Shown here: piece by piece, positions 1 to 15,043 of the stretch
How positions within the stretch are numbered: the stretch's first letter is position 1
How the letters are laid out: every line of letters begins with the position of its first letter
Assembly: GCA_963722305.1 (NCBI GenBank)
Contig: CAVRKE010000001.1
Location: 245,549-309,548, forward strand
Length of the DNA: 64,000 bases
DNA from: Candidatus Levyibacteriota bacterium
Lineage (GTDB): Bacteria > Patescibacteriota > Microgenomatia > Levybacterales > UBA12049
Direction of reading: 5' to 3'
The notes under the pieces: model-generated
Told to the model about the DNA's origin: nothing
Seen by the model: only the letters and a program-made list of their open reading frames with translations
Databases searched by the model: none
Program-made: the position numbers and the translations under genes

Positions 1-277
1 GATCCGTAATTCCTCTTTCAATATCCGAAACTGCGGCATGAGAACGACTTAAGACTTTTCCTAACTTTCTGGGATTTACTGTTTTTTTGTCTTAGTTCTT
101 CTATATTTTTGCTCCTATTTCTTCTCGCGTTGTCATAATCGGAGTGTAGCACTTACTTACATAAAAAGCAATATTGTAAGAAAAGTTGACAGAAGTTAAC
201 TATTGTTGTAAGATAATCTTAAGCTAATTTAAGTTTTGCTTAAACAGCTACTCTCTGGCAGGAAGGAGGAGAATCTT

Positions 278-570
278 ATGATAGAAATTCAGATAATTGG
301 AATTAGGAAACCGGGAGGAGCTTACAACACTCACTCTGCAATAACCATTACCAGTGGCTTGATCAGACAGGCAAAACTGGTATCTGGACAAGGCAAGAGA
401 TGATAGATTGGCTTCTCAGCGACTTAAACCAGCATAAAGCTTTTGTTCGGGATCGTCAAGGGGATAAAGCGTATTGCAAGGTCGTAAAAAATCAATTTGG
501 AACGATTTTTTTAGAAACCTACGCAGACGGAACAATTGCAGATAATTTACTGAATTTACCACTCTGCTAA
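278..570 (+). CDS. DUF3892-like small protein, split into two ORFs (278..403 and 400..570) by a -1 frame change at an ATGA overlap
   Basis: AGGAGG Shine-Dalgarno 8 nt upstream of ATG 278; translations MIEIQIIGIRKPGGAYNTHSAITITSG... and MIDWLLSDLNQHKAFVRDRQGDKAYCKVVKNQFGTIFLETYADGTIADNLLNLPLC, whose C-terminal NLLxLPxC signature I recall from DUF3892. Confidence 0.35.
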
Positions 571-631
571 AACAGGGATAATTTTAGTAATTTGAAAAGG
601 TGGCAGCCAGAGCTGCCTTTTCTTTTTCTAG

Positions 632-892
632 CTAGTAGTTAATCTTTTCCTTGAAGTTCTTCAACATCTCGTTCAGTCTATCAGTTATCAACTTCTCTTT
701 ATTATCGTCTATATATTCACCAGAAAGAAGCTTCCAATCAACCTCTCCTTCGTTAATCTGCTCATCAACTTTGTCGATATTCCCGTCTTGCTTTATATAA
801 GCCTGCATTAAGACTCCGTTTTCAAGTTTGTAATAAGAACTCATGTCCTTATACGCATACCATTGATTATTTGTTTTTATATTTTTATCCAT
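632..892 (-). CDS. hypothetical protein, 1 nt downstream of the MTase on the same strand
   Basis: 86-aa ORF with charged composition and no recognised motif. Confidence 0.4.
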   Translation of the reverse strand: MDKNIKTNNQWYAYKDMSSYYKLENGVLMQAYIKQDGNIDKVDEQINEGEVDWKLLSGEYIDDNKEKLITDRLNEMLKNFKEKINY

Positions 893-893
893 A

Positions 894-2128
894 TTATAGA
901 AAGCTTTTATCAGAGATTATCTGATTATTTTCTCTAATATCCTCCTTATTAAAATTCTCGTTAATTATATACCTTTTTTCAAAATCTGACATAAACTCAA
1001 AACTTGAAGTGCCTTTATACCGAGAGGTTAAACTATGATAACTCTCTAATTCCTCACCATTTATATGGCTCATGATTGCTTTGCCTGCCATATAGCCTAA
1101 CTCAACAGGCACGGCATTTCCGATTTGTTTATAAACGCTTATTGGTTTTCCGACAAATTTCCAATCTTTAGGAAATTGTTGAATAAGCGCGTATTCTTGA
1201 ATACTTAGAGGTCGTAGCTCGTCCGGGTGAACGAGCATTGTGGCTGGCATTGTCGGGTGAGTAACCAAGGTAGGTGAGGGCTTATCCCAATTAAATCTTC
1301 TATAAAATCCCGTTTTCCCCCCAGAAAGGTAATAAGATTTACTCATTGCTTCTTCTTGAAGCTCATCTGGCAAATCCCTCCAATCCTGACCTCCGTTAAG
1401 AAGTTTTATATATTTTAAATGATTTTCTCTTAACTTAATAAAATCATGTTGTCCTTTTTGTATGCTTCCTATTGCGTCTCTAAGCGTTACGAGATTTAAT
1501 GCAGAAGTAGGTTTGGGAATTGCAATAGGATTCGAAGATAAAGCTCCGAACATGATAAATCTTTCTCTTCGTTGAGGAACAGAATAAAGAGAGCTGTCAA
1601 AGAGGTTGAAGGAATTGAATAACCAAGTTTTTCAAATTCTTTATAAAGAAAATAAACCACACTTTCTGGAACATCTTCAATTTTTTTATATTCCTGATAT
1701 TCGGGAGGAGTGTTCTCAAGTTTTGCATACAAAATTCCTCGAACATTTTCCATGATGAAATACTTAGGCTGTATTTCTCGCACATAGTCTAAAAATCTCA
1801 CAATTACGTTTCCGCGAAAGTCATCGAAACTTCTTCTATGTCCGGCAGTGCTAAATGCTTGACAAGGTGGCCCTCCAACAATTAAATCAACCTCGCCTGC
1901 TTTTAAATTTAAATCTTTTAGGATATCGCTTGGCTCAATAAGGTTAATGTCATTTTCATATACCTTTAATTCAGGCCTGTTTAGCTTGATTGTCTTAACG
2001 CATGTTGCGTCATTCTCAATACACGCGACGACTTTAAAGCCTGATTTCTCTATTCCCAGGTCTAAACCTAAAACGCCACTGAATAGCGATATCGCTTTTT
2101 TTGTTTTTCCTGACTTACGTTGCGTCAT
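894..2128 (-). CDS. DNA (cytosine-5)-methyltransferase, interrupted by an apparent frameshift (ORFs 1496..2128 and 894..1553 overlap)
   Basis: Motif I FSGVLGLDLG, motif IV GGPPCQAFS and motif VI ENV in the upstream ORF; motif X QIGNAVPV in the downstream ORF; junk-like tail after the TRD in the first ORF. Confidence 0.85.
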
Positions 2129-3087
2129 ATGTATCTTTCCAAAACTTGCTCTACAGAGAGGCCTTTGTATTTATTTTCCCAGTAGCCTTTAAATTCTTTT
2201 ATCTTCTCATCTATAAGCTCAATAAAACTTTTATTAAGTATTCCCGTTGAAGAATTATCTAATATATTAAAAAGGTCTTTGTAAAAATCTTTTTTCTCGC
2301 TTATAAAATCCCAAAAATCTCTACCAATCAATATCTTTTCTTTCCCTCCACGCAAATGACCTATTTGGTCAGATAATCTATCCTTTGTTCCATAAGTTAT
2401 TCCAAGCAATCCTTTAGCCCCTGGTCTTTCTCTCTCTAGCTCAGATATTGCTTCTCCAAGGCTTGTTACCATTCCAACGTTCATTGAATTGGGGCCACTT
2501 TTGATTTGAATATAATAGTCAACATTTTTAATGCTTTTCATTAAATCGAAATTTGTTCCTTTTTTATCTTTAATGATGTAATCATTATCTTTGCAACCTG
2601 TAAATTTGGCTATAGATTCTACTGTATCTCCCCATGAGGTTACCACTGACCTTGTTATAGTTTGATAAAGATTGAAAACTATAATTTTTTCAGGCGTATC
2701 AAGATTTAATCCCTTAGCTAATAAAGGATTTATATCTAAATTCTCAAATTTTAATTGAACAAGCATTTCAACCTGCGACTTTAAAAATTCACGGCCTAAG
2801 TAAAAAACCCAACTTTCTTCCAAGGATAGTCTCTGAGGTAATGGCGCTTTTGATTTAATAAGTTCATCTATTTGTTCCGTAGATAATACTTGCTTATCTT
2901 TTGAATTTTTTATTTGAGAAAGACGCGCTATGTCAGCTGCTAGGAATTCCTGAAGGTTGCCTTCAAAATCTGCTGCAATCATTCCAGCAGTAGCAGTTCC
3001 TACACCGTTAACAGACCTTGCAATTTTCATTATTAAGGTGTCTACGGACTCTTTTATACCCTCTATTGCTGGTTCATTAGTTGCCAT
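2125..3087 (-). CDS. putative type II restriction endonuclease partnering the m5C MTase
   Basis: ATGA start/stop overlap with the MTase gene; N-terminal helix-hairpin-helix-like ARSVNGVGTATAGMIAADF; candidate PD-(D/E)xK-like NVDYYIQIK. Confidence 0.45.
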   Translation of the reverse strand: MATNEPAIEGIKESVDTLIMKIARSVNGVGTATAGMIAADFEGNLQEFLAADIARLSQIKNSKDKQVLSTEQIDELIKSKAPLPQRLSLEESWVFYLGREFLKSQVEMLVQLKFENLDINPLLAKGLNLDTPEKIIVFNLYQTITRSVVTSWGDTVESIAKFTGCKDNDYIIKDKKGTNFDLMKSIKNVDYYIQIKSGPNSMNVGMVTSLGEAISELERERPGAKGLLGITYGTKDRLSDQIGHLRGGKEKILIGRDFWDFISEKKDFYKDLFNILDNSSTGILNKSFIELIDEKIKEFKGYWENKYKGLSVEQVLERYI

Positions 3088-3183
3088 TATAAAACCATTA
3101 TAATCTACTTCATTAATTTAATCATCATCCTAATTTTCTCCGAAAGTCTTTAAAATAATTATACAACCGGCATAATATTGCTT

Positions 3184-3597
3184 TCAACTCCAAGGGAGTT
3201 TCTGAATCATTTCTCCAACTTCATCTACAACTCTTGTAGTAAATTTATCGATGTCCGATAAGTCTTTTTCGATTACTTTTTTTACACCTCTATCTTGTGC
3301 CTGCTTATTAAATCTTGTTACTGCTGAAATCGCAATTACTTTTTCTACTCCTAGATGCTCTACGTCTAGAACATGAAAACTTGCATTTATCTTGCAATCG
3401 CGATCGAGAATTATTATGTCAAACTTTGCCTTAGGGTTATCATTGATAAGATTCTCTACCTGCTCTGAATCATTAATTACTGTTAAGGAGAATTCGAAGG
3501 GTTGGCGATCTTCTAATGTCGAAAGTTTTTCGAGTAACTTAGAAAGAACTAGATAATTATCTTCTAAAATAAGGATCCGTTTTATTAATAGCGTCAT
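3184..3597 (-). CDS. stand-alone response regulator receiver (CheY-like) domain protein
   Basis: ILILEDN acidic pocket, FDIIILDRD phospho-acceptor Asp, VIAISA Ser/Thr and a conserved Lys. Confidence 0.7.
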   Translation of the reverse strand: MTLLIKRILILEDNYLVLSKLLEKLSTLEDRQPFEFSLTVINDSEQVENLINDNPKAKFDIIILDRDCKINASFHVLDVEHLGVEKVIAISAVTRFNKQAQDRGVKKVIEKDLSDIDKFTTRVVDEVGEMIQKLPWS

Positions 3598-3631
3598 CTG
3601 TAAGCATTATAAATCAATAATCTCTTGAAGG

Positions 3632-4039
3632 TTAAGTTTTCTTTAGTCTATCCGGATATACTATTTCTCCCTTAGGTTTACCTTTCATATATACTGAGGG
3701 GTCTTTGGGGTCGTATTCTAGCCAATCACACGGCGCTGTAACGCCTTGCACAAGATCAACTACAGCTAACTCATTCCAATACCTTTTTCCATCTTTTATT
3801 TTAAACGGAGTTAATCCTTGCTCTACCCAAAATCTAATAATTTCTTCAATATCCTCTGGCCCCATCGCACCGTCTTTATAAAGATATTTATCGTATAGAA
3901 TCTTTTTTCCGATCCATTGCCTATTAAGCTCAAGCACACCTTTTAACTTTCCTAAGTGCTTACACTTTTTTTCAATGATTTTAATTGGAATTACAACCGC
4001 AATGAATTGATGATAAATAGCCATATAGTGTTTGGACAA
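3632..4039 (-). CDS. hypothetical protein
   Basis: 135-aa ORF, no recognised motif. Confidence 0.4.
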   Translation of the reverse strand: MSKHYMAIYHQFIAVVIPIKIIEKKCKHLGKLKGVLELNRQWIGKKILYDKYLYKDGAMGPEDIEEIIRFWVEQGLTPFKIKDGKRYWNELAVVDLVQGVTAPCDWLEYDPKDPSVYMKGKPKGEIVYPDRLKKT

Positions 4040-4042
4040 AAA

Positions 4043-4276
4043 CTAATTATTGTTTTGCTGTTTATTCCTAAATATTGAAGCAACAATAATAAAAATTACA
4101 GTAATAATTAATGAGGCTGTGAAGAGACTGTAACAATCGTGTCCCCTTGATGCGCAAGTTCCGGATCCATTATGGTTAGTCACATGTATCCAGTCGATAA
4201 GTAAAGAAATGATATAGATTACAGCAATAAATTTTTGCTTTTTATTCTCAACTAAGTTATTAAAAAAAATGTTCAT
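4043..4276 (-). CDS. small membrane protein (hypothetical)
   Basis: 77 aa with two hydrophobic segments. Confidence 0.3.
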   Translation of the reverse strand: MNIFFNNLVENKKQKFIAVIYIISLLIDWIHVTNHNGSGTCASRGHDCYSLFTASLIITVIFIIVASIFRNKQQNNN

Positions 4277-4292
4277 ATAAATTAAACATTAT

Positions 4293-4802
4293 CTATATAA
4301 TATCTTTTGACTTAACATCATCTATTGCTCTTTGAACGGTGATTCTGTAATTTTCATTCTCGTTTTTCAAAAGATCGGATGAGTAATCCAAGAATAACCG
4401 GTAATATGCCTTAGCATCATCAATCTTGCCTGCTCTTTCTAGGACTGTGCCGGCCTTATAGGTATTTAGTGGATCTGGATCAATTGAAGCTGCTTTTAAA
4501 GCTGAGGCAATAGCTTTCTCAAACAACTCCTTTTTTTGGACAATTGTTATTCTTTGTATAGAAGAGGGGAATCTTATTCTGTTTAAATACTCTTCCGCGA
4601 GGCTAAACAGAGCTTGAGAGGCAATAGTTTTATGCATTATTTTAACTAGTTCTTCGGGCGCATACCACTCTCCCTGAGCTTCTTCTTTTTGTTTAGCCGA
4701 CAGAAATTGTTTCCATGCACTATTTACTGTCTGCTTTTCCTCATCTGTTAGATGAATTTCTTTCTTGCTTTTGTTATCTGATTGCATAAGTAAAATATAC
4801 AT
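4293..4802 (-). CDS. hypothetical protein, TPR-like helical
   Basis: 169 aa; AYYRLFLDYS and AIASALKAASIDPD look like TPR. Confidence 0.4.
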   Translation of the reverse strand: MYILLMQSDNKSKKEIHLTDEEKQTVNSAWKQFLSAKQKEEAQGEWYAPEELVKIMHKTIASQALFSLAEEYLNRIRFPSSIQRITIVQKKELFEKAIASALKAASIDPDPLNTYKAGTVLERAGKIDDAKAYYRLFLDYSSDLLKNENENYRITVQRAIDDVKSKDII

Positions 4803-4845
4803 CTTTTGAGATCATAATGCTAGTTATTGTCTGTAGAGTTATTGA

Positions 4846-5079
4846 ATGCATTTTCATACTATTCTAGATATGAAAACAACGCCGGCACGAAAACAACTTG
4901 GAGAACGGATTAGAAAGCTAAGAAAAAAGCAAGGGATCTCTCAAGAAGAACTTGGATTCAGATCGAAGCTACACAGAACATATATTGGTGCTATTGAGCG
5001 CGCAGAGCAAAATGTTTCTATTGATAACATCCATAAGATTGCCAAGGCTCTAAAAGTATCCCCAAAAGAACTTTTGTAA
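4846..5079 (+). CDS. XRE-family helix-turn-helix transcriptional regulator (Cro/C1 type)
   Basis: LGERIRKLRKKQGISQEELGFRSKLHRTYIGAIERAEQNVSIDNIHKIAKALKVSPKELL is a classic HTH_XRE. Confidence 0.75.
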   Translation: MHFHTILDMKTTPARKQLGERIRKLRKKQGISQEELGFRSKLHRTYIGAIERAEQNVSIDNIHKIAKALKVSPKELL

Positions 5080-5089
5080 AATAAAAATT

Positions 5090-5800
5090 CCGCCATCTTC
5101 CACCATCAACGAGGCTGTGTAAAGATTACTTAATCACGAAAATGCTGAAAAATGCTGAAATTTTTCGCACTTCTATGCAAAAATGTTAAGTTTTGTTAAG
5201 GTTTTCTGCATTATTTATACTTAAATAAGAGTTTGGTGACACGATAAAAAGAAGCTAAAAAGTAGTTTATTATCACTATAAAGATGGAACTATGATAAGA
5301 ATTGATAAGATTTTTCGCGCTACATACGAAAATACTAAAATTTCCTGAAATTTTTAGAGTTATCTATGCGTGAATGAAAGTTTCTTGACACGATAAAAAG
5401 AGGCTAAAGAATAGTTTCTTCCCACTATAAAAGGGAATATATTGAGTTTTATTGAGGTTTTTCATATATTTAGCCAGCAAATGCTAAGTTTTGCTAACCT
5501 TTTTGACATCTAACTGCCACAAAACTAGTTTTGTGGCACTATAAAAGAGGCTAAAGAATAGTTTCTCCTCACTATAAAAAGAAATATGCTGAGAATTGCT
5601 GATATTTTTCGTTTTACAAGCTACAAATGTTGAGGTTAGTCAAGGTTTTTCATGTATTTTAGTCAAGAAATGTTATTATTTGTTATTATTTTCCGCTATT
5701 ACCACACATAACTAGGCACAATAAAGAATTTTTCGGCACTTATAAAGAAGCTAAAATTGAGTTTTCCGCCGCTTTACGCGCGCGCGTGCGCGCGAGATTC
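5090..5800. repeat. tandem array of four degenerate ~149-bp units (core starts 5238, 5387, 5536, 5736), each with a conserved ~45-bp core GACAC(G/T)ATAAAAAGAGGCTAAAGAATAGTTTCTNCNCACTATAAAAG and an internally duplicated variable part
   Basis: Direct reading; spacing 149, 149, 200 bp; AT-rich. Confidence 0.8.
5777..5797. repeat. alternating CG tract ACGCGCGCGCGTGCGCGCGAG, palindromic and Z-DNA-prone, isolated in AT-rich DNA at the end of the repeat array
   Basis: Direct reading. Confidence 0.7.
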
Positions 5801-5850
5801 TTTGAGTAAATTTATTAAATCCTGTAAAATGTAGATAGATTGAAATGTAG

Positions 5851-6543
5851 ATGAATATGAAGCAAAAAGATTTTAGTATCAATTACTCTTTGCGAAAACT
5901 TATTCAAGATAAGTTTATTCAAAGCATGGTAGCGGATTTATATAAGCACAGAAAAGAAACAGACCCGGTAACCATCTTTCTTCCGCTTACAAATGACCGT
6001 TTTAATAAAATCGCCTCTGATCCTGACCATGAAGGCATAGAAAATTTTGAGGAGCTTTGTCTAACTTTTGATGACAGTTTATTCTTAAATGAGCTTTTCA
6101 AGTTGAGAGTTTTGTCTAAAAAAGAATGCGCAGACGAGGATTTTTCGGCGTGTGTGAAAATAATCAATCCAGAGTTTATCGAACATATTCATGCGTGGAT
6201 AAAGGACAAAAATCTCATTATCAATTACGGCATTTTTAGCCTTCACACTTTTTCAGGAGAAGCATATTGTTTGGATAACAAATATGTTTTCCATGCCGGA
6301 AAGAGATCATTTCGGGTATTTCGATCCTTTCTCGAAGAGCCAACGCATATACTTGACTATCAAACCATTTATAAAATATTTTACAAAGGAGAAAAGAACA
6401 GACCGACTTACCGAATGAGTCCTACACAAATTCACCAAATAATAGGCGATATAAGGGAAAAACTACACATGAAGGGGGAACTCTCAAAATTGTTTGTCCC
6501 ATCATCAGATCAATACATCCTAAAATCAGATTTAGGCCTTTAA
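5851..6543 (+). CDS. DNA-binding protein with C-terminal OmpR/CadC-type winged-helix domain; candidate partner of the upstream repeat array
   Basis: C-terminal RVFRSFLEEPTHILDYQTIYKIFYKGEKNRPTYRMSPTQIHQIIGDIREKL matches the Trans_reg_C pattern (ends in an LRKKL-like motif). Confidence 0.5.
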   Translation: MNMKQKDFSINYSLRKLIQDKFIQSMVADLYKHRKETDPVTIFLPLTNDRFNKIASDPDHEGIENFEELCLTFDDSLFLNELFKLRVLSKKECADEDFSACVKIINPEFIEHIHAWIKDKNLIINYGIFSLHTFSGEAYCLDNKYVFHAGKRSFRVFRSFLEEPTHILDYQTIYKIFYKGEKNRPTYRMSPTQIHQIIGDIREKLHMKGELSKLFVPSSDQYILKSDLGL

Positions 6544-6652
6544 TACAATCCATTCAATTAGGTAATCTTCAAAATACTCCCCGATAGTTCCCCACCTATG
6601 ACTAGCCCATACCAAGAGACTCCTGCTTTATTTCTTTTTAGTATTCCACTAT

Positions 6653-6904
6653 ATGGAAAATAAATTTACAACTTACGACATACTTCTCTCCTCTTTTTTG
6701 CTTACCAATGAAATCAATCTTATAGGAATAAAAGAGACTTTTCCCCGTCGTTTTATTTTTATACTTTCAGATACCGATAAGTGTGAAAAACTTTCCAAAG
6801 AATATATTAACAACGCTTCGGCTCCTGCGCGAGAACTTTTTTCCAATCGAGAAATGCTTATCAATGAAATAAATAGAAAAATGACTAATGCAGTAAGGGG
6901 ATAG
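6653..6904 (+). CDS. hypothetical protein
   Basis: 83-aa ORF; weak. Confidence 0.25.
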   Translation: MENKFTTYDILLSSFLLTNEINLIGIKETFPRRFIFILSDTDKCEKLSKEYINNASAPARELFSNREMLINEINRKMTNAVRG

Positions 6905-7146
6905 AGAAGCGTATTGAAAACGCAAGCCGAAAGGCTAAGTGGTAATCGACTGCCACAACCTACCGCAGAAGGACTGTTCGGATTGAAACAAGCGGTTTCC
7001 CGATCACACCAAACGAACAGATAAGATGCTTTGCAAGACCGTTGAAACGCGTGAGCAAAGATTAACATCAAAAACCTTCTGGTTTATCTCTCTTCTTCTA
7101 AGAAATGAGATGAGTAACAGTAGTAACTAGGGAGAGGAAAAAGAAT

Positions 7147-7311
7147 ATGGAAAATCGAAAAATCGATCAAAAAACAACAAAACAACTAGTTATAGATGCC
7201 GGGTTGCACCAAAGACTTAAGATGATGGCGGCGGAGCGCTCTATGACTATTAAAACGCTCGTGGAAGGGTGTCTAGCGGAACTTCTAGTAGTTAAAGGAG
7301 AGGATTTATGA
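7147..7311 (+). CDS. ribbon-helix-helix (CopG/Arc-like) small DNA-binding protein
   Basis: 54 aa MENRKIDQKTTKQLVIDAGLHQRLKMMAAERSMTIKTLVEGCLAELLVVKGEDL has the RHH beta-alpha-alpha pattern; not in the ORF track because it is short. Confidence 0.5.
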   Translation: MENRKIDQKTTKQLVIDAGLHQRLKMMAAERSMTIKTLVEGCLAELLVVKGEDL

Positions 7312-7469
7312 CACCGGAAGAATTTAAACAAGCAATTCAAGAATTTAAGGTCATTTACAAAGAGGTATTCGGCGTCGAATTGAATGGTGAAGAAGCAACT
7401 ATAAAAGCCCGGAGCTTACTTCAGTTGTTCGACTGCTTGACAACAGGAACAGGAAAGGGATTACAATGA
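7308..7469 (+). CDS. small hypothetical protein, translationally coupled (ATGA overlaps on both sides)
   Basis: 53 aa MTPEEFKQAIQEFKVIYKEVFGVELNGEEATIKARSLLQLFDCLTTGTGKGLQ. Confidence 0.35.
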   Translation: MTPEEFKQAIQEFKVIYKEVFGVELNGEEATIKARSLLQLFDCLTTGTGKGLQ

Positions 7470-9210
7470 AATTAGAAGAGATAGAAATGCAAAAGCATCC
7501 AATAACCAAAAACGAAAAAAAGTTTTATATTATATACTGCCGTAAATCATCTGAAGCAGAAGATAGACAAGTTGAAAGCATCAATGACCAACTTAAAGAA
7601 GCTGATAAAATAATTCTTCAAAGAAGTCTCGACGTTAAAGACAAACCGTTTACCGAATCGCGCTCAGCAAAAAAACCGGGTAGGCTAGAATTTAACCGAA
7701 TGATTGAGGAAATTGATAATAGGCATGACATTAAAGGCATTATTTGTTGGAAATTAAATAGACTTTTTAGAAATCCTGAAGATGAAGGTAAAATAAGACA
7801 ACGACTTTCAGACGGAAGAATCGAAGAAATAGTTACGCCTTCAAAAACATACCTAGAGGCTGATAGTGATTTTACAATGGCGGTAGAAGGAGCTCAAGCA
7901 CAAAGGTTTATCAGAGATTTGAAGGAAGATACTGCAAGAGGAATCAAATCAAAACTTGATAAGGGTATTGCTCCGATATTAGCTCCACCGGGTTATCGTA
8001 ATTGCCTTGAAAAAAGACAAGGGGAAAGAAACATAGAGCCTGTTCCCGATCAATTTACTTTATCAGAAACTTATTCGAGATATATCTTACCGGCAATTAC
8101 TCCGTTCAACAACTATGGTTTAAGGCAAAAGAATTGGGTATAAAAAGCAATAGGGGCAATATTATTAGCTTAACGCAACTTTATAAAATGCTGACAAACC
8201 CATTCTACACGGGCACAAGATATGTCTATGCGGACAAGCTATATACAAACGGAGTTCACAAAAGAATGTTAACCGACGAAGAATATAATCTTATACAAGA
8301 AATTCTTTCAAAGAGAACGCATCCAAGGGGCTCAATTCATATGGATTTACTAACTGGAATTATGAGATGTGGGGAATGCGATAGAACAATCACTACCGAA
8401 GTTAAAACCAAACACTATAAAAATGGCACATCTCAAACATTTGTTTATTATCGCTGCACCAAGAAATGGAAAGGTAAAAAATGCACTCAACCTTATATTC
8501 GCGCAGAATTACTTGAAGAGCAAGTAATGAAGTATCTTGATGGATTACAACTTTCTCCACGCTTTGTGGAATGGGCAATCAAATGGCTTCAAGTAATGCA
8601 CGGGAAGCAAGAAAAATTACGGGAAGCAAAATATAAAACGATAGAACAAGCATATCAAGAAGTTGTTAAAAAGATTGTTAGAGTGGTTGACTTAACCCTT
8701 TCCGGGATGTTAACAGCCGAAGAAGGCATATTAAAGAAGCAAGAATTAGAGGTAGAAAAGAAAAGATTATCTGAAGAATTAGAAATGATTGATACTCATG
8801 TTTCAGAATGGAGCAGTCTTGCTATTCAAACTTTCGACCTTGTTAAAAACATCAAGGAAAGATTTACTAGCGGGTCTATTGAACAAAGAAAAACAATACT
8901 CCGCGTTATTGGCTCGAACCTAATATTAAAAGACAAAACTATTCAAATTGAGATTCGAAAACCTTTTGAGTATATACAAAAGGTTGTAAGTCAATTAAAC
9001 GAAGATAAACGGCTCGAACCTATCGATTTGCCTGATATAACAAGCCAAGAAGCCTTTTTGCACTCTCCAAATATAATAGTGGGTGGAAGACGGGTGCTGC
9101 CCCCGCTACTTCCTGGACCACAACCAGGCGCTCTACTGTTGAGCTACATCCACCGAGTGAAACGAGGTAGTACTATACCGAAGGTACAGTACACCGCACC
9201 TCAATTATAA
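7466..9210 (+). CDS. large serine recombinase (integrase/resolvase type) with an apparent +1 frameshift near 8048-8060; the C-terminal tail reads through an antisense tRNA-like sequence
   Basis: Catalytic YIIYCRKSS...DRQ; resolvase-domain GRLEFNRMIEEI; recombinase domain resumes in the other frame (IRNLFEIYLTGNYSVQQLWFKAKELGIKSNRG...NPFYTG); zinc ribbon CGECDRT...YYRCTKKWKGKKC; coiled coil. Confidence 0.85.
9082..9154 (-). tRNA. degenerate tRNA-His(GUG)-like sequence, possibly an att-site remnant or pseudo-tRNA
   Basis: G-1 plus GUGGAUG acceptor pairs with CUUCCAC and C73 (one U-U mismatch); D-arm GCUC/GAGC; anticodon stem CCUGG/CCAGG with loop UUGUGGU; T-stem GCGGG/CCCGU but a non-canonical T-loop GGCAGCA and a short D-loop. 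Confidence 0.35.
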
Positions 9211-9254
9211 CATCTTTTGAGGCTCAATAAAAATAAATTGTGTTACAATAAATT

Positions 9255-9854
9255 ATGGTTTCAATCAGTGAAATTTGGGAAGACAAAGAAGGTTTTGAAC
9301 AGTGGTTTGAAAATCCCCAGTTGCATCTTCGGTTAAGAGACTTCCGCAAACCTCCGCCTTTAGCGGAAGAAGATTTAGTTTTATTAACTGAGCTTGGAAC
9401 TGGACCAAAAACTTATGATACGGGTTTGGTCATTGGCCGCTTTCAACCGCTTCACTACGGACACATCTTTTTAATGATGCAGGCGCTTAGGGTCTGCGAT
9501 CAAATTGCCGTTGGTATTGGAAGCGCCAATGTTGTCGACGAAAAAAATCCTTTTCCCATAGACTTAAGGGAACAAATGTTAAGGGAGGCACTACACGATT
9601 TTGGACTTACTGCAAGACTAACGCAAATTGTCAGAATTAATGATGTTAATGATGACCAACAATGGTTTGAGCAAACACGTTTGCTTACAAAATTTGATGT
9701 GGTTGTGGGTAACAATGAATCCGGCGTAAACAGAATCTTCAGAGAAAGGGGGATTCCGACCGTGCAAACCCCTCTTTTGAACCGCGCTTTTTATCAGGGG
9801 ACACATATCCGGTGGACGCTGAGCAACGAAGGTTTACTACCTCAAATCATTTAG
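9255..9854 (+). CDS. nadM: nicotinamide-nucleotide adenylyltransferase, archaeal NadM-type cytidylyltransferase fold
   Basis: GRFQPLHYGHIFLM HxGH nucleotidyltransferase motif, about 200 aa. Confidence 0.75.
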   Translation: MVSISEIWEDKEGFEQWFENPQLHLRLRDFRKPPPLAEEDLVLLTELGTGPKTYDTGLVIGRFQPLHYGHIFLMMQALRVCDQIAVGIGSANVVDEKNPFPIDLREQMLREALHDFGLTARLTQIVRINDVNDDQQWFEQTRLLTKFDVVVGNNESGVNRIFRERGIPTVQTPLLNRAFYQGTHIRWTLSNEGLLPQII

Positions 9855-10744
9855 GATGCAGGCTTGGTGGCTAAAAGTATGTTGTACGAAGTTGCCCCGG
9901 AATTAAATAATCCTTCCTGGTACATCCCCCATAAGCTATTTTTAACCATAAAATCGGGGACTATTCTTAATTTACCCGCAGAAACTGCCAGTGGATAAGT
10001 AACTCTGCACATCATTCTCATTCTTGCTGCCGAAGGCATTACTTCATTTGTTAGGTCTGAATTAGCTACAGCTGTAAATCCTGCCTGTTGCATAACTTTA
10101 GCTATATTTGCTGCTGTCCTAAAATCGTTAAAACAACCGGACACCTCTTGCCCTACTTTCATCTGACTTATTTCTTGCGGAGTTAAATCTGTTCTTCCTA
10201 AAAACGTAGCGACAATTATTAATCTTCCGCCTGGTTTTAGCATCCTAAAAGCTTCTTTAATAAACTCATCCGGATCACTTGCGTGTTCCAGGCTTTCCAA
10301 AGACCATACTACGTCAAATGATTGATCCGGAAAGGGCATTTGCTGATAATCTCCTTCCTCAAAAGTGACCAAATCGGAAAGTCCTTTCTTCCGGGCAATC
10401 TTTCTACCTTCTTCTATTTGTTTCTGCACAATATTTAAACCGACAACCTTCGCTCCTCTATTTTTAGCCAACCAAATACCGCTACCTCCAATCCCGCAAC
10501 CCGCATCCAAAACCCGATCACCGGGTTTTATAGCGATCATATCTGCAAGCACTCTATTTTCATTGATAATTGCTTCGAAACGGTTTTTCATACCTTTTTC
10601 CCACAGTCCGTAATGTAAACCGTTTGTTCCACGGTGCCATGCGAGCCTATAAAAAAGGTGAGCTTTTTCATAGTACCGAATAATTCTGCTTTTATGCTCC
10701 TCCTCAGATGAGTTTAATCTAAGCGGTCTGTCTTCAATACTCAT
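9851..10744 (-). CDS. class I SAM-dependent methyltransferase
   Basis: Motif I VLDAGCGIGGSG, acidic motif II, LKPGGRLII. Confidence 0.8.
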   Translation of the reverse strand: MSIEDRPLRLNSSEEEHKSRIIRYYEKAHLFYRLAWHRGTNGLHYGLWEKGMKNRFEAIINENRVLADMIAIKPGDRVLDAGCGIGGSGIWLAKNRGAKVVGLNIVQKQIEEGRKIARKKGLSDLVTFEEGDYQQMPFPDQSFDVVWSLESLEHASDPDEFIKEAFRMLKPGGRLIIVATFLGRTDLTPQEISQMKVGQEVSGCFNDFRTAANIAKVMQQAGFTAVANSDLTNEVMPSAARMRMMCRVTYPLAVSAGKLRIVPDFMVKNSLWGMYQEGLFNSGATSYNILLATKPAS

Positions 10745-10782
10745 AGAACCCGATTTTAGCAGTTATTTTATCTTTATTCAAA

Positions 10783-11562
10783 CTATAAGTTATTGTTAAG
10801 GTGGTAGGGGACTCTTAATTTGTAGGCATTATTTTCGGCAAACTCAATAATTTTTTTTGCCCCCGGATACATTTGCTCAATCGAAAAAGCCGAATTCTTT
10901 TTATCAAAATACAAAAGTAGAACCGGATCCGCTTCTTTGTAGGTAAAACCGAACTCTTTTTCGTCGGTTTGCTCTCCCCATAAACCCGCTGAAGGATGTT
11001 TTGAAATAATTAACTCCGGAATTTTTAAATATTTTGCCAATTCATAAACCTGAGTTTTGTACAGATGGACAATCGGTTCAATATCGGAAGCCGCGTCGCC
11101 AAAACGAGTGAAGTAGCCCAAAAAATGTTCCGAACGGTTTTCCGTACCAACCACCATGGCATTATTTTTTTTGGCAGTGTCAAAAAGCATCATCATACGG
11201 ACCCGCGCCATAATATTTCCCTTACGGACCAAATCTTTTTCGGGAACCTTTAATTCTTTGATCAAACTGTCCGCCATTATTTTGATTGAGAAAATCTGCA
11301 GATTAGATTTTGGAATATTTAAACTTTGTAGCAGTTGGTTAATATCATCAGCTTCATCCTTAAAATAGGGAAGATGTAAAATTTTGATGTTTTGAGAAGG
11401 TATTGCCTTGCTTAAAAGCGCCAAACTGACGGCCGAATCGATTCCACCGGAAACTCCGATCACTGCTTTTTTGATTTTTTGGTCCAAAAAAGTTTGCCTT
11501 AAAAAAGAGACAATTTTGGAAACCTCTTCTTCTGTGTCTATTTCCAACAAGTCTTTAAACAT
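10783..11562 (-). CDS. nadE: NH3-dependent NAD+ synthetase
   Basis: PP-loop IGVSGGIDSAV (SGGxDS); likely start MFKDLLEI inside the longer ORF. Confidence 0.85.
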   Translation of the reverse strand: MFKDLLEIDTEEEVSKIVSFLRQTFLDQKIKKAVIGVSGGIDSAVSLALLSKAIPSQNIKILHLPYFKDEADDINQLLQSLNIPKSNLQIFSIKIMADSLIKELKVPEKDLVRKGNIMARVRMMMLFDTAKKNNAMVVGTENRSEHFLGYFTRFGDAASDIEPIVHLYKTQVYELAKYLKIPELIISKHPSAGLWGEQTDEKEFGFTYKEADPVLLLYFDKKNSAFSIEQMYPGAKKIIEFAENNAYKLRVPYHLNNNL

Positions 11563-12120
11563 ATAATTTATGCTCCTTAATATACATCTCCACTTTTTCC
11601 GGCACAAGACCATGAATTGATTTTCCTTGTTTAACCCTTTCTCTGATTTTAGTCGAAGAAAAATCGGTGGTAATCAGTGTTGGTGAACTAAGCACTTCAA
11701 AACCTTCGGGAATTTTAGAGGGAATGGCGTGTGGATCGCGCGGTACAATCAGAAATGTGGCAAGCTTCAAAAGCTCATCTGCCTTTGCCCACCTTCTAAA
11801 TTCCGGCAATATATCCGAACCGCACACCCAGAAAATTTCCGCCCCGGTTTGACTTTTAACTTCTTTAATCGTATCAACGCTATAACTGATTCCCCTCCTT
11901 TTGATTTCGATATCCGAAATTTCTACCCGCGGTTGTAAAAAAACTTTCAGCATTTCCATTCTGTCTTTAGGACTGGCAACAATCGGTTTCCACTGGTGTT
12001 GAAAAGTCGGTACTAACAACAATTTATCGATATCCTTACGGAATTTTAGAACTTGTTTAACGGCTAAAAAATGACCAAGGTGGGGAGGATCAAATCTTCC
12101 GCCAAAAATTGCAATCTTCA
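11555..12120 (-). CDS. nadD: nicotinate-nucleotide adenylyltransferase
   Basis: IAIFGGRFDPPHLGH HxGH motif; start placed at MKIAIFGG because the longer ORF N-terminus overlaps tRNA-Arg. Confidence 0.8.
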
Positions 12121-12181
12121 TTCTGTGATATATTGTATCAAAATTTCCATTTCTTAGCCCCATTTGATAAAATATGAGTAC

Positions 12182-12254
12182 GGCCCTGTAGCTCAACGGA
12201 TAGAGCGAGTGCATTCTAAGCACCAGGTTGGGGGTTCGATTCCCTCCAGGGTCA
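12182..12254 (+). tRNA. tRNA-Arg(UCU)
   Basis: Manual fold: acceptor GGCCCUG/CAGGGUC, D-arm GCUC/GAGC, anticodon loop AUUCUAA, T-arm GGGGG-UUCGAUU-CCCUC. Confidence 0.85.
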
Positions 12255-12359
12255 CAAGTTGTATCTAAGCTCCGCAATTACAAACAGGTTCAATTGTTGT
12301 ATAATCTTTTTGAACTTATTAATCCTGTTAAATCCGATTAAATTTGATAGTAATTAAAT

Positions 12360-12620
12360 ATGACGAGATTTTATTACACTTATATTTTACAATCGAAAAC
12401 AGATAAGAAGTTTTATACTGGTTTTACAAATGATTTAATCGGAAGATTTAAGCTTCATCAGACTGGAAAAGTTTCCTCAACAAAAAACAGAACACCATTT
12501 AAGTTAATTTATTATGAAGCGTGCTTAACTCAAAAAGACGCGACAAGAAGGGAGAAGTATTTAAAAACCTATCTGGGTAAAATGTTATTACGCAATAGGC
12601 TTAAATCTTATTTAACATGA
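12360..12620 (+). CDS. GIY-YIG nuclease domain protein
   Basis: YYTYILQSKTDKKFYTGFTNDLIGRFKLHQ matches the GIY-YIG signature. Confidence 0.75.
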   Translation: MTRFYYTYILQSKTDKKFYTGFTNDLIGRFKLHQTGKVSSTKNRTPFKLIYYEACLTQKDATRREKYLKTYLGKMLLRNRLKSYLT

Positions 12621-12623
12621 TAA

Positions 12624-13469
12624 ATGAAAAAATTTAAGAAATTATTAATTGAGCAGGCTTTGCCAATTCTTCTAACGTTTTTCACTTTTCTAGTTTTAGC
12701 CACTCTACTTTACGGCCTACTGTTAATTCTTGATTCGCTTAAACTGGGCGCGCCGATAATTTTGGATTTCCGCAGAAGAGAGGTTTTATTCGGAATCATT
12801 ATTTACCTTAAAACTGCCATCGACTTTGCCATTTTTATCGGAAACCTGATGCGCACCAACCCCGGTTGGAAAAAAAGGATTGCCATAGAACTTGGAACAG
12901 CCGTAGGGAATGGCCTTGGCACTTTTCTGATTTTAATTATCTGGACCGTACTTAAAGCAGTGCCGCTTTTGATGATAGTGATGATTTTTATCGCCTCGGT
13001 CGTGCTTTTGCGTATGGCTCAGGAAAGCTTTGAAGAATTCTTAAAACAAAGACAAAGCTTTATCAAATTAAAAATGCCGGTTTCGCTTTTACAGGACCAG
13101 CTAAATTTAGTTAACAAAATTTTTAGGCCAATTCTGCGCTTTTTCGTTCCGAATTTGAACTTGACCAAAACCAAAAAATTGTCTTTTGTCAACTTAGTGG
13201 TCTTTTCTCTAACCATTCCTTTTGTCTTGGGTCTGGATGACTTTGCCGGCTACATTCCTTTGTTTACATTAATAAACGTTTTTGGATTCACGCTCGGAAT
13301 TTTACTCGGTCACATGCTTTTAACCATCGGGCTTTTCGCGTTTCCGAAAAAAACTGTCGAGGTTGTGAAGCATCCGATTGTCCTAATTGCCGGAGGCCTG
13401 GCTTTTATCGGACTCGGACTTTACGGTTTTTATGAAACATTTTTAATTCTTCTTGGCCTCGTCCACTAA
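12624..13469 (+). CDS. polytopic integral membrane protein (hypothetical)
   Basis: 281 aa with 7 or more hydrophobic helices. Confidence 0.6.
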   Translation: MKKFKKLLIEQALPILLTFFTFLVLATLLYGLLLILDSLKLGAPIILDFRRREVLFGIIIYLKTAIDFAIFIGNLMRTNPGWKKRIAIELGTAVGNGLGTFLILIIWTVLKAVPLLMIVMIFIASVVLLRMAQESFEEFLKQRQSFIKLKMPVSLLQDQLNLVNKIFRPILRFFVPNLNLTKTKKLSFVNLVVFSLTIPFVLGLDDFAGYIPLFTLINVFGFTLGILLGHMLLTIGLFAFPKKTVEVVKHPIVLIAGGLAFIGLGLYGFYETFLILLGLVH

Positions 13470-13516
13470 CCTACGCACTTGAGTGTGAATAAAGCGTTTA
13501 GTATAATAGTTTATAC

Positions 13517-13589
<73 letters not shown>

Positions 13590-13590
13590 A

Positions 13591-13620
13591 AAAAATCCCC
13601 TTTTTTAGGGGATTTTTAAT
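13591..13620 (+). terminator. rho-independent terminator after tRNA-Gly
   Basis: AAAAATCCCC-TTTTTT-AGGGGATTTTT hairpin plus T-run. Confidence 0.7.
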
Positions 13621-13721
13621 TGACCTTGATTACAATCATTGAATTAAACCGAATTGTAAGGTAAAATTGTAATACGTTAGTCTCGACCCCTGCCTCGAAT
13701 TTCGGGGTCGAGTCTATACGC

Positions 13722-13806
13722 GCCGCGGTGGTGGAATGGCAGACACGAGGGCCTTAAGAGCCTTTGCCTTTAATCGGGCGTGAGAGTTCGACTCTCTCTC
13801 GCGGCA
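13722..13806 (+). tRNA. tRNA-Leu(UAA), type II
   Basis: Acceptor GCCGCGG/UCGCGGC, D-arm GUG-GAAUGGCAGA-CAC, anticodon loop CUUAAGA, long variable arm, T-arm GAGAG-UUCGACU-CUCUC. Confidence 0.85.
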
Positions 13807-13826
13807 CTTCTTCATAAACTTATTTC

Positions 13827-14007
13827 CGGGGAATAGCTCAGTTGGTAGAGCGCGCGGTTTGCCTGCCCGCCATAGCTACGGAGTGTAGTTCATCGGTAGA
13901 ACGCTCGGTTTGGGACCGAGAAGTAGGAGGTCCAATTCCTCTCACTCCGACAAGGCAAGTGCAGGCGGGGGACCGTGAGGCCGGAGGTTCGAGTCCTCTT
14001 TCCCCGA
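13827..14007 (+). tRNA. split/intron-containing tRNA-Ala(UGC)-like gene; the ~108-nt insertion in the anticodon loop is itself a complete tRNA-Pro
   Basis: 5' half CGGGGAA-UA-GCUC-AGUUGGUA-GAGC-G-CGCGG-UUUGC; 3' half (A)CCGUG-AGGCC-GGAGG-UUCGAGU-CCUCU-UUCCCCG-A; acceptor 7/7 bp, anticodon stem 5/5 (one G-U), canonical D and T loops. Confidence 0.5.
13879..13950 (+). tRNA. tRNA-Pro(UGG), nested inside the tRNA-Ala-like gene
   Basis: Acceptor CGGAGUG/CACUCCG, D-arm GUUC-AUCGGUA-GAAC, anticodon stem CUCGG/CCGAG with loop UUUGGGA, T-arm GGAGG-UCCAAUU-CCUCU (C55 unusual), discriminator A. Confidence 0.6.
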
Positions 14008-14078
14008 CTAAAGAGGACGAGAAGCCAGCTCGAAGAGCAGTCCTGAGACGAAGCATAAGGAAGTCCTCTTTCCCCGAC
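13992..14078. repeat. 17-bp perfect direct repeat AGTCCTCTTTCCCCGAC (13992..14008 and 14062..14078) duplicating the T-arm/acceptor 3' end; the first copy is followed by its complement AAAGAGGAC, forming a hairpin
   Basis: Direct reading. Confidence 0.8.
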
Positions 14079-14080
14079 AA

Positions 14081-15043
14081 CTATCCATGCTGCGGAGGAG
14101 TAATGCCTTCCGACTTTAAGGAGTAATCCAAAAGCTCAATCATTTCACCCCTTCTATCATCACTTCCCAAAATGACGGCAATAATTTTGTGTCCGCCGTA
14201 ATCTAAGTAAGTCACTAAACATAAACCCGCTTCGGGCGTGTAACCGGTTTTAACGCCTTTAACACCGGGGTAACTGGTCAAAAGATTAGTCTGGTTTTCC
14301 AGATAAAAAGCTTTGTGCTCCACAGTGTAGGGGATATCGTAATCAAAAGTCGAAACGACCTGGTCAAACAAGGGAAAGTTAGAAATGGCATAGTCTGTAA
14401 TCACTAATAAATCATAGGCGGTGGTATATTGCTTGCCGTCCCCCTCAAGCCCGGTCGGGTTGGTAAAATTAGTATCGGAAAGACCCAACGATTTTACCTT
14501 ATCATTCATCGCTTTAATAAAAAATTCTCTGCCCGGAAAATTTTCGGCCAGCACCTCTGCCGCATCATTGCCGCTAGTTAGTATCAACCCATACAATAAA
14601 TCACTCAGAGTGAGCGTTTCACCGGTACTTAAGCCCATTGAATCTTCTCCGACCAAATCGTCCTGTTTAACAACGTAAGCATCATCCAGTCTTTTATTCT
14701 CTAAGGCAATGACGGCGGTCATAATTTTTGTGAGGGAGGCCATCGGCAATCTTTCTTGCGGGTTTTTGGAGTAGAGCACTTGTTTTGAAGTTGTATCGTA
14801 AATTAACGCCGACTTGGCGCTAATTTGCGGTGCCTGAAAACTAACCGAAATTTTGTTCCTTAAAGAAGGCAGCCAGAGATTTAGGCTTGAAACTTGCTTG
14901 TTAAGAAAAGCTGTTAAAAAATCGGGGACAGGGGAAACAATTGGACCTTTATTATTCGTCACTTTCGCGTAAATATTCAGCGAGGCAAAACCTAAAATTC
15001 CTAAAAAACACAAAAAAAACAAAAACAGCATAACTTTCTTCAT
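14081..15043 (-). CDS. D-alanyl-D-alanine carboxypeptidase (serine-type PBP5/6 family)
   Basis: SxxK ASLTKIMT, SGN LTSGNDAA, KTG VKGVKTGYT, N-terminal signal peptide. Confidence 0.85.
   Translation of the reverse strand: MKKVMLFLFFLCFLGILGFASLNIYAKVTNNKGPIVSPVPDFLTAFLNKQVSSLNLWLPSLRNKISVSFQAPQISAKSALIYDTTSKQVLYSKNPQERLPMASLTKIMTAVIALENKRLDDAYVVKQDDLVGEDSMGLSTGETLTLSDLLYGLILTSGNDAAEVLAENFPGREFFIKAMNDKVKSLGLSDTNFTNPTGLEGDGKQYTTAYDLLVITDYAISNFPLFDQVVSTFDYDIPYTVEHKAFYLENQTNLLTSYPGVKGVKTGYTPEAGLCLVTYLDYGGHKIIAVILGSDDRRGEMIELLDYSLKSEGITPPQHG

Follow-up and report, generated by a model that had tools for sequence, protein, structure and literature searches.

Integrases of the tyrosine and serine types differ in the length of sequence that their attachment sites have in common: the core is 25-76 bp for tyrosine integrases at transfer RNA (tRNA) genes and 5-8 bp for serine integrases, and the serine integrases that have been studied insert within protein-coding genes, which they disrupt (PMC8092301). 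Mycobacteriophage Ms6, with a tyrosine integrase, targets the T loop of tRNA-Ala (PMC1762012), and integration-dependent immunity in mycobacteriophages is a case in which the end of a gene is switched upon integration (PMC8092301). Here, we describe a 64-kb stretch of a Candidatus Levyibacteriota genome (GenBank assembly GCA_963722305.1, contig CAVRKE010000001.1, positions 245,549 to 309,548; hereafter the window), in which positions 9080-9154 are very probably the right-hand hybrid attachment site (attR) of a mobile element whose large serine integrase has docked on the native tRNA-His gene. Two features are unusual here: the tRNA target, and an integrase open reading frame (ORF) that extends over the crossover and ends at a stop codon provided by the tRNA. 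A large census of large serine recombinases, available as a preprint, does not mention tRNA at all, and our literature search found no description of serine integrases at tRNA genes, which is absence of evidence only.

The island at the 3' end of tRNA-His

The insertion is visible by comparison with a closely related strain. Through a look-up of the neighbouring protein (9255-9854), we found contig_39044 of ENA assembly ERZ25039473 (locus L001), which is 98.7% identical to the window over 9080-14720; left of 9080 the window is unrelated, and 1-9079 has no similarity to positions 1-9825 of L001. In the place of the island, L001 holds the recombination-factor gene mgsA and other chromosomal genes, and mgsA directly beside the tRNA is the ancestral order. 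The mgsA gene lies 25-870 nt from the 3' end of tRNA-His in L001, L004 and L021, and the window has no copy of it. In L004 and in the strains of the window and L001, NAD synthase is found on the 5' side of the tRNA. The GC content of the island stretch is 33-38%, against 40-43% to its right. The island is inserted exactly at the 3' end of tRNA-His, between the tRNA and mgsA, and since mgsA is missing and 1-9079 is foreign to L001, it must be longer than 9.08 kb, with its left junction beyond the window start. The initial annotation, made from the letters of the window, had read this site as an attachment-site junction and had placed the restriction-modification (R-M) system, the repeat array and the recombinase on an integrated element extending leftward past the window start. 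The homology break at 9080, the chromosomal genes that L001 has instead of the island, and the adjacency of mgsA and tRNA-His in the three loci bear out both. Separately, the BipA, cytidylyltransferase-like and peptidase S11 genes of L001 are in pieces, although they are intact in the window or in relatives; this suggests indel errors of that assembly, so that frameshifts there should not be taken for biology.

Identity between the window and the empty site of L001 starts at T9080. Both ends of a related 7.0-kb element are visible in locus L049, whose integrase is 81% identical. Its left hybrid site (attL) reads AAGTTGAGGCTAAAAACTT-TGGGT-TTACCCTG, where AAGTTGAGGCTAAAAACTT is the trailer of tRNA-His (the B arm of the bacterial attachment site, attB) as seen in the empty loci L004 and L015, and its attR reads TCTATTA-TGGGT-GGATGACGGGGATCGAACCC, where GGATGACGGGGATCGAACCC is the tRNA. 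The only sequence common to these two ends is TGGGT, and the same is true of attB in L001 and attR in the window. Candidate forms of the un-integrated, or phage, attachment site (attP), namely L044, the phage-like contigs L045-47, and L048, are shared only up to GTGGGT and then diverge. The last of these is a 22-kb phage contig with DnaB, SNF2 and Rad52 genes and an NlpC/P60-like gene (a weak Pfam match). Terminal repeats were not found in the candidate attP contigs, so their circularity is not shown. At most three nucleotides of the tRNA are possibly element-derived, and they are identical either way.

The arms that flank the core have recognizable motifs. In the element-derived P arm, relatives have GGTYCGAG/GGTTCTAA 12 nt before GGGT, where the window has CACTCTCC. 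In the opposite arm of attP (P', in L044 and L045), (T)TCGAACC stands at 21/22-28 from GGGT, with the real tRNA T loop at 16-23, and the attP of L045 is an imperfect inverted repeat of GGTYCGARC centred on the core. In structures of the LI integrase, the outer motif is reportedly shifted outward by 5 bp in attP compared with attB.

The element family has also been on the move. Locus L051, on a JGI metagenome contig, has an element end that is identical at 217 of 238 nt (91%), with a single mismatch in the last 80 nt before the core (9000-9079) and 20, mostly at third codon positions, in the preceding 158. By this comparison, conserved element-end DNA reaches well past the ~25 bp expected for an attP arm. 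The L051 element sits on an identical tRNA-His, and the neighbouring host protein is only ~53% identical; because the same end stands in a different host, the family has recently moved between species.

We propose that the integrase would recombine attP with an attB made up of the acceptor stem and T arm of tRNA-His (B') and the trailer (B), a reaction for which the presence/absence polymorphism, L051 and the un-integrated forms give indirect support. Strand exchange would take place at a dinucleotide inside TGGGT (tRNA A71-C73 plus CA), the body of the tRNA would remain host-derived and intact, and nothing would be duplicated. On this model, mgsA is expected beyond the window start, and after it CCTTGAGGCAAGTTTTGTGGGTATT-TGGGT- and element DNA, without a tRNA fragment.

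The serine recombinase and its borrowed end

The recombinase gene is split in the window into an ORF at 7466-8143 with the Resolvase domain (PF00239) and an ORF at 8134-9210 with the Recombinase (PF07508) and Zn_ribbon_recom (PF13408) domains, together the architecture of large serine recombinases. An R-K-S motif, whose serine is presumably the nucleophile, does not vary among 29 homologues. The initial annotation had called the gene frameshifted, and we can trace this to one base missing between 8059 and 8060 in comparison with L005, a locus from another Levybacteria species that is 80% identical, and with all homologues; with the base restored, the product has 581 residues. Because of this deletion, the element copy in the window is probably immobilized, unless the frameshift is an assembly error.

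There are more than 1260 homologues below E=1e-20, most of them 540-544 aa long. Nearly all of the 120 best end in (V/L/M/W)G(G/D/E), and the rest continue with tails such as GDRRDSNPQRPAPQAGALPL or GGVPELNRQPSGPQPDALT. These tails are translated antisense tRNA-His: DSNP or ESNP corresponds to GATTCGAACC, the canonical T loop, and the PQ that is invariant in them corresponds to CCACAA, the antisense of the GUG anticodon loop. The 3' end of the recombinase gene overlaps antisense tRNA-His in L005, L026, L028, L031, L032, L049, L050 and L051. In five of these (L026, L028, L031, L032 and L049), the tRNA-His(gtg) called by ARAGORN overlaps the last ~10 nt of the ORF or directly follows it; in L032, for which the mapping covered just the conserved part of the integrase, the gap is 50 nt. 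The L026 integrase is 85% identical to the repaired window protein. The ORFs of relatives end in GGT GGA TGA or GGT GGC TGA, in which TGA is the antisense of U65-C66-A67, and the proteins of L026, L028, L031 and L049 end in GGTGGATGA or GGTGGCTGA inside the tRNA. As judged from these loci, the recombinase family is specific for tRNA-His, against which it sits in a fixed register in many lineages.

Where the host tRNA has a U6-A67 pair, the stop codon of the integrase (GGT GGA TGA) would come from the acceptor stem read in antisense. In the window, the second ORF crosses the entire antisense tRNA and stops at 9208-9210, and the same read-through is seen in L005 and L050, also on U67 tRNAs. The initial annotation had noted that the ORF reads the tRNA antisense to give a low-complexity tail; this is indeed the case, and the tail arises because the U67 of this lineage replaces A67, so that TGA becomes AGA. 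In our model, the integrated gene would thereby gain a meaningless tail of 40 residues.

A search of viral contigs with the single window integrase found no relatives, which were found only with an alignment query. The relatives in IMG/VR (L033-L040), 30-34% identical, lie at the very end of 16-60-kb viral contigs, and their integrases read into antisense tRNA-Gly (tcc, gcc or ccc) or tRNA-Thr (tgt). The 3' ends of tRNA genes are usually regarded as targets of tyrosine integrases; from these sequences, it seems that a wider clade of large serine integrases also docks there, with tRNA-His as the target here and tRNA-Gly or tRNA-Thr in the distant relatives.

Two copies of GGCTCGAACCT lie within the recombinase coding region. 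The pair is 100-101 bp apart and at the same positions in all eight loci listed above for the overlap, and the second copy lies 81-83 bp before the T loop of the target tRNA and is kept despite a differing frame. In the first copy, the serine codon is always TCG in the examined loci, a codon that accounts for ~13% of serine codons in host genes. Since the copies are kept across frames and the TCG is invariant though rare, this suggests that they are under constraint at the DNA level. The 100-bp-spaced TCGAACC motifs had raised the idea of tRNA remnants in the 3' coding region of the integrase; a permissive Rfam search of 8000-10500 showed none, returning only tRNA-His and a chance match to Flavo-1 (E=5).

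The tRNA-His of Levybacteria and the alternative readings

The tRNA-His gene, GGUGGAUGUAGCUCAACAGUAGAGCGCCUGGUUGUGGUCCAGGAAGUAGCGGGGGCAGCACCCGUCUUCCACC (the reverse complement of 9082-9154), is covered end to end by the Rfam tRNA family (RF00005) on the minus strand, over 9082-9153. The score is 44.2 bits, against a gathering score of 29, and the E-value is 1.5e-7 when 2.5 kb are searched and 3.8e-6 over the whole window. It is the lowest scorer among the 13 tRNAs of the window, the other 12 having 49-76 bits, and its copy in L005 scores 50.2 bits. The anticodon loop UUGUGGU gives a GUG anticodon, G-1 (9154) stands opposite C73 (9082), and the acceptor stem GUGGAUG/CUUCCAC has a single mismatch, U6:U67. 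The D loop is AACAGUA, in which A replaces G18, and the T loop is GGCAGCA; all 12 other tRNAs have the D-loop GG and a canonical T arm of the G(T/C)TC(G/A/C)A type (GTTCGA, GTTCAA or GTCCAA). From the conserved elbow set of G18-G19, T54-Psi55-C56 and A58, only G19 and C56 are retained, along with R57. All the features that the initial annotation had listed, a tRNA-His-like cloverleaf with GUG, G-1:C73, odd D and T loops and one acceptor mismatch, are thus present. ARAGORN leaves the gene uncalled in both the window and L005. The minimum-free-energy fold of the single sequence is the cloverleaf, and it is no stabler than shuffled sequence (z=-1.0), so support for the tRNA comes from the covariance-model score and the relatives, not from folding energy.

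When we scanned one genome per species for the D-arm and anticodon pattern, 23 genomes were found, all of Candidatus Levybacteria/Levyibacteriota or unclassified Patescibacteria, and all 23 have the identical D loop and a non-canonical T loop (GGCAGCA, GGCGGCA or AGCAUCA). Covariation was tested on the 14 distinct sequences, with 22 pairs, 500 shuffles and slid controls. The cloverleaf is 95.5% paired, with the D, anticodon and T stems fully so, and five pairs have changed on both sides; such changes occur in four of the five anticodon-stem pairs. No shuffle matched the observed pairing or covariation, the slid controls are 37-53% paired, and RNAalifold, given no structure, returns the same four arms. 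The His identity set (GUG, and an encoded G-1 paired with C73) is invariant in all 14. The U6:U67 mismatch is a trait of the lineage (12 of the 14 sequences), to which some add U5:U68; a fully paired acceptor is seen in two sequence types from three genomes (L003/L022 and L024).

The changes in the elbow follow a pattern. C56 and the purine at 57 are kept, position 55 is always G, with A in the place of G18 in the D loop, and positions 54 and 58 covary as G..G or A..U. In canonical tRNA, there is a contact between G18 and Psi55, and G19-C56 and T54-A58 are pairs; because these partners interact, the changes look like coordinated swaps rather than decay. The element-free L001 carries the whole tRNA-His, identical including the T arm and U67, and has no recombinase. 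The neighbourhood of the gene (NAD synthase, a cytidylyltransferase-like gene and tRNA-Arg(tct)) is that of the canonical tRNA-His of L026, which supports orthology of the two. The tRNA on the minus strand belongs to the chromosome itself and is a tRNA-His of the unusual form that typifies Candidatus Levybacteria, and the label 'degenerate' in the initial annotation does not fit a gene whose odd features are kept across the lineage and which has an identical copy in an element-free strain. As a side observation, exact 15-19-nt fragments of the 5' half of tRNA-His (D-arm region) are duplicated just upstream of the tRNA, on the host side, in two loci with integrated elements, L031 (11699-11717 and 11735-11751) and L026 (10963-10977).

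On balance, we favor the view that the odd gene is the only tRNA-His of the lineage, a rare bacterial elongator tRNA without the canonical elbow that is missed by standard finders. This would be a trap for annotation: since ARAGORN misses the gene, Levybacteria genomes may seem to be without a tRNA-His, or the gene may be taken for a pseudogene. A literature search found no description of tRNA-His from Levybacteria or the Candidate Phyla Radiation, which is not proof of novelty.

The alternative that fares best, though we consider it unlikely, takes the odd tRNA-His for a relic or decoy without function, retained as a site for integration, while a canonical tRNA-His elsewhere does the decoding. 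It would explain the loss of the near-universal G18 and T54-Psi55, the U6:U67 mismatch (with U5:U68 in some sequences) and the low covariance score. Such a canonical gene is seen in L016 (MFOC01000005.1, minus strand, ~6337 to 5710), 500 nt from a truncated odd gene: of the odd tRNA-His only the 5' portion is left, which breaks off within the 3' side of the anticodon stem; ~480 nt with an HNH-like-motif ORF (HHKNGRRNDNRIENLELW) come next, and after these stands a canonical tRNA-His that is complete (Rfam 67.9 bits). It looks as though an HNH-plus-tRNA cassette has taken the place of the native tRNA-His, the break being in the anticodon-loop sequence that the two genes share, and a replacement of this kind implies that the two tRNA forms are interchangeable, which argues against a relic. 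So do the compensatory substitutions that keep the anticodon stem paired across species, the invariance of G-1:C73 and GUG, the joint changes at 54 and 58 with C56, R57 and G19 retained, and the synteny with the canonical tRNA-His of L026. In the 64-kb window, moreover, there is no further tRNA-His among the 12 other tRNAs.

The initial annotation had offered another explanation, which amounts to a tyrosine-type island, in which an element inside tRNA-His supplies an imperfect 3' part and the displaced 3' segment, CCCGTCTTCCACCC, stands as a direct repeat at the far end. This would account for the odd T loop and the acceptor mismatch, for a tRNA that scores lowest in the window and escapes ARAGORN, and for a junction exactly at the tRNA gene, with the far-end repeat possibly off the window; even so, we regard it as very improbable. 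The element-free strain and at least 20 species without an adjacent recombinase have the identical tRNA in full, T loop and U67 included, and the odd form is conserved with covariation in the 23 genomes, so the 3' portion is not the element's. The closest relative, L026 (85%), sits on a canonical T loop, which shows that the T arm follows the host and not the element, and the adjacent enzyme is a serine recombinase, not a tyrosine one. As to the direct repeat, a search of the window for CCCGTCTTCCACCC with up to two mismatches found only the tRNA itself and an unrelated two-mismatch match at 1309. The two ends in L049 have only TGGGT in common, and no repeat was found in the available parts of elements, including by blastn-short of the tRNA against its own element in L026, L028, L031 and L005. 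We also considered a left junction inside the window; it was ruled out, as there is neither a P'-type motif (TCGAACC, or GGGT + N10-22 + TCGA) in 1-9000 nor a match to the left flank of L001.

That there is no mobile element, only a resident recombinase beside tRNA-His and an unrelated rearrangement in L001, might be read from the frameshift and from a left boundary that is not visible in the window, but this has a negligible probability given the presence/absence polymorphism between 98.7% identical strains, the 7-kb relative bounded by host trailer DNA and tRNA, the same element end in a different species (L051), the un-integrated homologues in phage-like contigs, and the IMG/VR relatives at prophage ends beside tRNA-His, tRNA-Gly or tRNA-Thr.

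Our preferred reading, docking of a serine integrase on the native tRNA-His, has points against it as well. The frameshifts in the integrase and the methylase are possibly assembly errors. The left junction of the island is off the window, so its own attL was not seen, and no attP of this exact element was found; the right limit of the core was drawn from relatives of 63-67% identity, and the crossover is placed inside TGGGT, not to the exact dinucleotide. For the tRNA, L016 is one species with a canonical tRNA-His beside a truncated odd one, and since the evidence covers 64 kb of this genome and, for relatives, loci of 8 kb, there may be a second tRNA-His elsewhere that is canonical.

A link between the remodelled elbow (G18 to A with U55 to G; 54:58 as G:G or A:U) and the role of the tRNA as a docking site, with the pressure of mobile elements reshaping their target, is a speculation to which we attach little weight. 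The phage attachment arms of the integrase family imitate the canonical T arm (GGTTCGA), which in them is displaced outward by 5 bp relative to the tRNA. A P-arm motif that mimics the odd T arm on odd-T-loop hosts was also looked for, with no convincing similarity. Very close integrases are found on both tRNA types (L005 versus P0009, and the window versus P0001), so the T-loop sequence is not a strict determinant. If the link were true, mobile-element pressure would have reshaped a universally conserved part of an essential tRNA, and the loss of the tRNA-supplied stop codon of the integrase (A67 to U67) would be a by-product.

Element content and comparison with described systems

Table 1. 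Features of the element and its target in the window
Feature	Positions	Strand	Remarks
tRNA-His gene	9082..9154	minus	G-1 = 9154, G1 = 9153, C73 = 9082; anticodon GTG; CCA not encoded; B' arm of the attachment site
Common core TGGGT	9080..9084		Antisense of tRNA A71-C72-C73 + trailer CA; putative strand-exchange dinucleotide inside
P arm of attR, element-derived	9045..9079	plus	Encodes the last recombinase residues (..QEAFLHSPNIIV)
Large serine recombinase (integrase) gene	7466..9210	plus	Resolvase, Recombinase, Zn_ribbon_recom (Pfam); 1-nt deletion; repaired product 581 aa
Host-encoded read-through tail, 40 residues + stop	9088..9210	plus	Codon 9088-9090 is AGA (antisense of U65-C66-U67), versus TGA on A67 tRNAs
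First GGCTCGAACCT copy (T-arm-like TCGAACC)	8912..8923	plus	Inside the recombinase coding region
Second GGCTCGAACCT copy	9010..9021	plus	100 bp past the first; encodes LEP in the window, L026 and L049, ART in L005 and L031
Integrated element, right-hand part	1..9079		No L001 similarity, mgsA absent, GC shift; no P'-type TCGAACC in 1-8900; left junction beyond window start
Type II R-M cargo	894..3087	minus	C5 DNA methylase ORFs 1496-2128 + 894-1553; EcoO109I-like endonuclease 2125-3087 (Pfam)
Iteron-like direct-repeat array	5136..5764		Beside helix-turn-helix (HTH) gene (4846-5079); repeat families D1-D6

The coordinates of all features are given in Table 1. In the R-M system of the island, the EcoO109I-like endonuclease gene is intact and stands beside a C5 methylase in two overlapping ORFs, with positions 2-122 of the Pfam profile in 1496-2128 and 184-322 in 894-1553; the enzyme may be naturally split, or the gene may carry a frameshift, either real or introduced by the assembly. 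The remaining content is made up of several small genes of unassigned function, the HTH gene, a DUF5659 gene, a ribbon-helix-helix gene and the recombinase. An exact-protein look-up of the island protein at 5851-6543 returned no record. The repeat array extends over ~630 bp between the HTH gene and a 230-aa ORF, with 27-33-nt repeats at a spacing of ~34 and 115 nt or ~148 nt, and is similar to 9080-9217 of L049 in the related 7-kb element. Because related elements have replication genes at the equivalent place (Prim-Pol/PriCT, Phage_rep_O or DnaG-DnaB-like), the array is probably an iteron-type origin, or a region for replication or regulation of the element.

The cargo of related elements differs. 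In L049 (4775-8735), a four-gene block including a pP_pnuc_1-domain protein lies between the left junction and the HTH/repeat module, and L031 (874-6491) has a complete type I R-M system where the window element has a type II. On the host side of its left junction, just outside the element, L049 has a YafQ/YoeB-like toxin pair (3993-4526). By their content, these small elements seem to be vehicles for defence genes in Patescibacteria, a group for which there are almost no genetic tools; with their size (~7 to >9 kb), defence cargo and short attachment sites, they are a possible starting point for site-specific integration tools in these bacteria.

Non-canonical elbows without the G18-G19 and T54-Psi55-C56 consensus are known from animal mitochondrial tRNAs and from tRNA-Pyl, and the Levybacteria tRNA-His resembles them in lacking this consensus. 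Unlike those, it is a bacterial cytoplasmic elongator for a standard amino acid, with a normal cloverleaf size and with G19, C56 and R57 kept, and the other tRNAs of the window are canonical.

The integrase and its sites share several traits with Bxb1, phiC31 and the A118/LI integrases: the Resolvase, Recombinase and zinc-ribbon domains, an integrase gene beside attP, a 5-bp core and no duplication of the target. An attP that is an imperfect inverted repeat (L045) is likewise of the Bxb1/phiC31/A118 type, and in L044 and L045 the outer motif of P' is 5 bp more distant from the centre than that of B', as is said of the LI integrase. Unlike in these systems, docking is at the very 3' end of a tRNA gene that is left intact, and the integrase ORF crosses the crossover, so that its last codons and its stop come from the target.

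In its choice of target, the element resembles the tRNA islands of tyrosine integrases (Ms6 and Int-Y prophages), with docking at the tRNA 3' end, a tRNA left functional and the island directly downstream. It differs from them in having a serine enzyme and in sharing only TGGGT, where those islands have cores of 25-76 bp that duplicate the 3' part of the tRNA.

Finally, as in integration-dependent immunity, attP lies in the 3' end of a gene, and the C-termini of the integrated and excised forms differ: the integrase ends in GG* or in a tRNA-antisense tail when integrated, and in GLP*, GPQR* or ~30 extra residues when not. In the immunity system, the switch acts on a repressor, from which it removes a degradation tag, and has a regulatory role. 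Here, the switched gene is the integrase, not a repressor, and its alternative tails are not conserved as protein.

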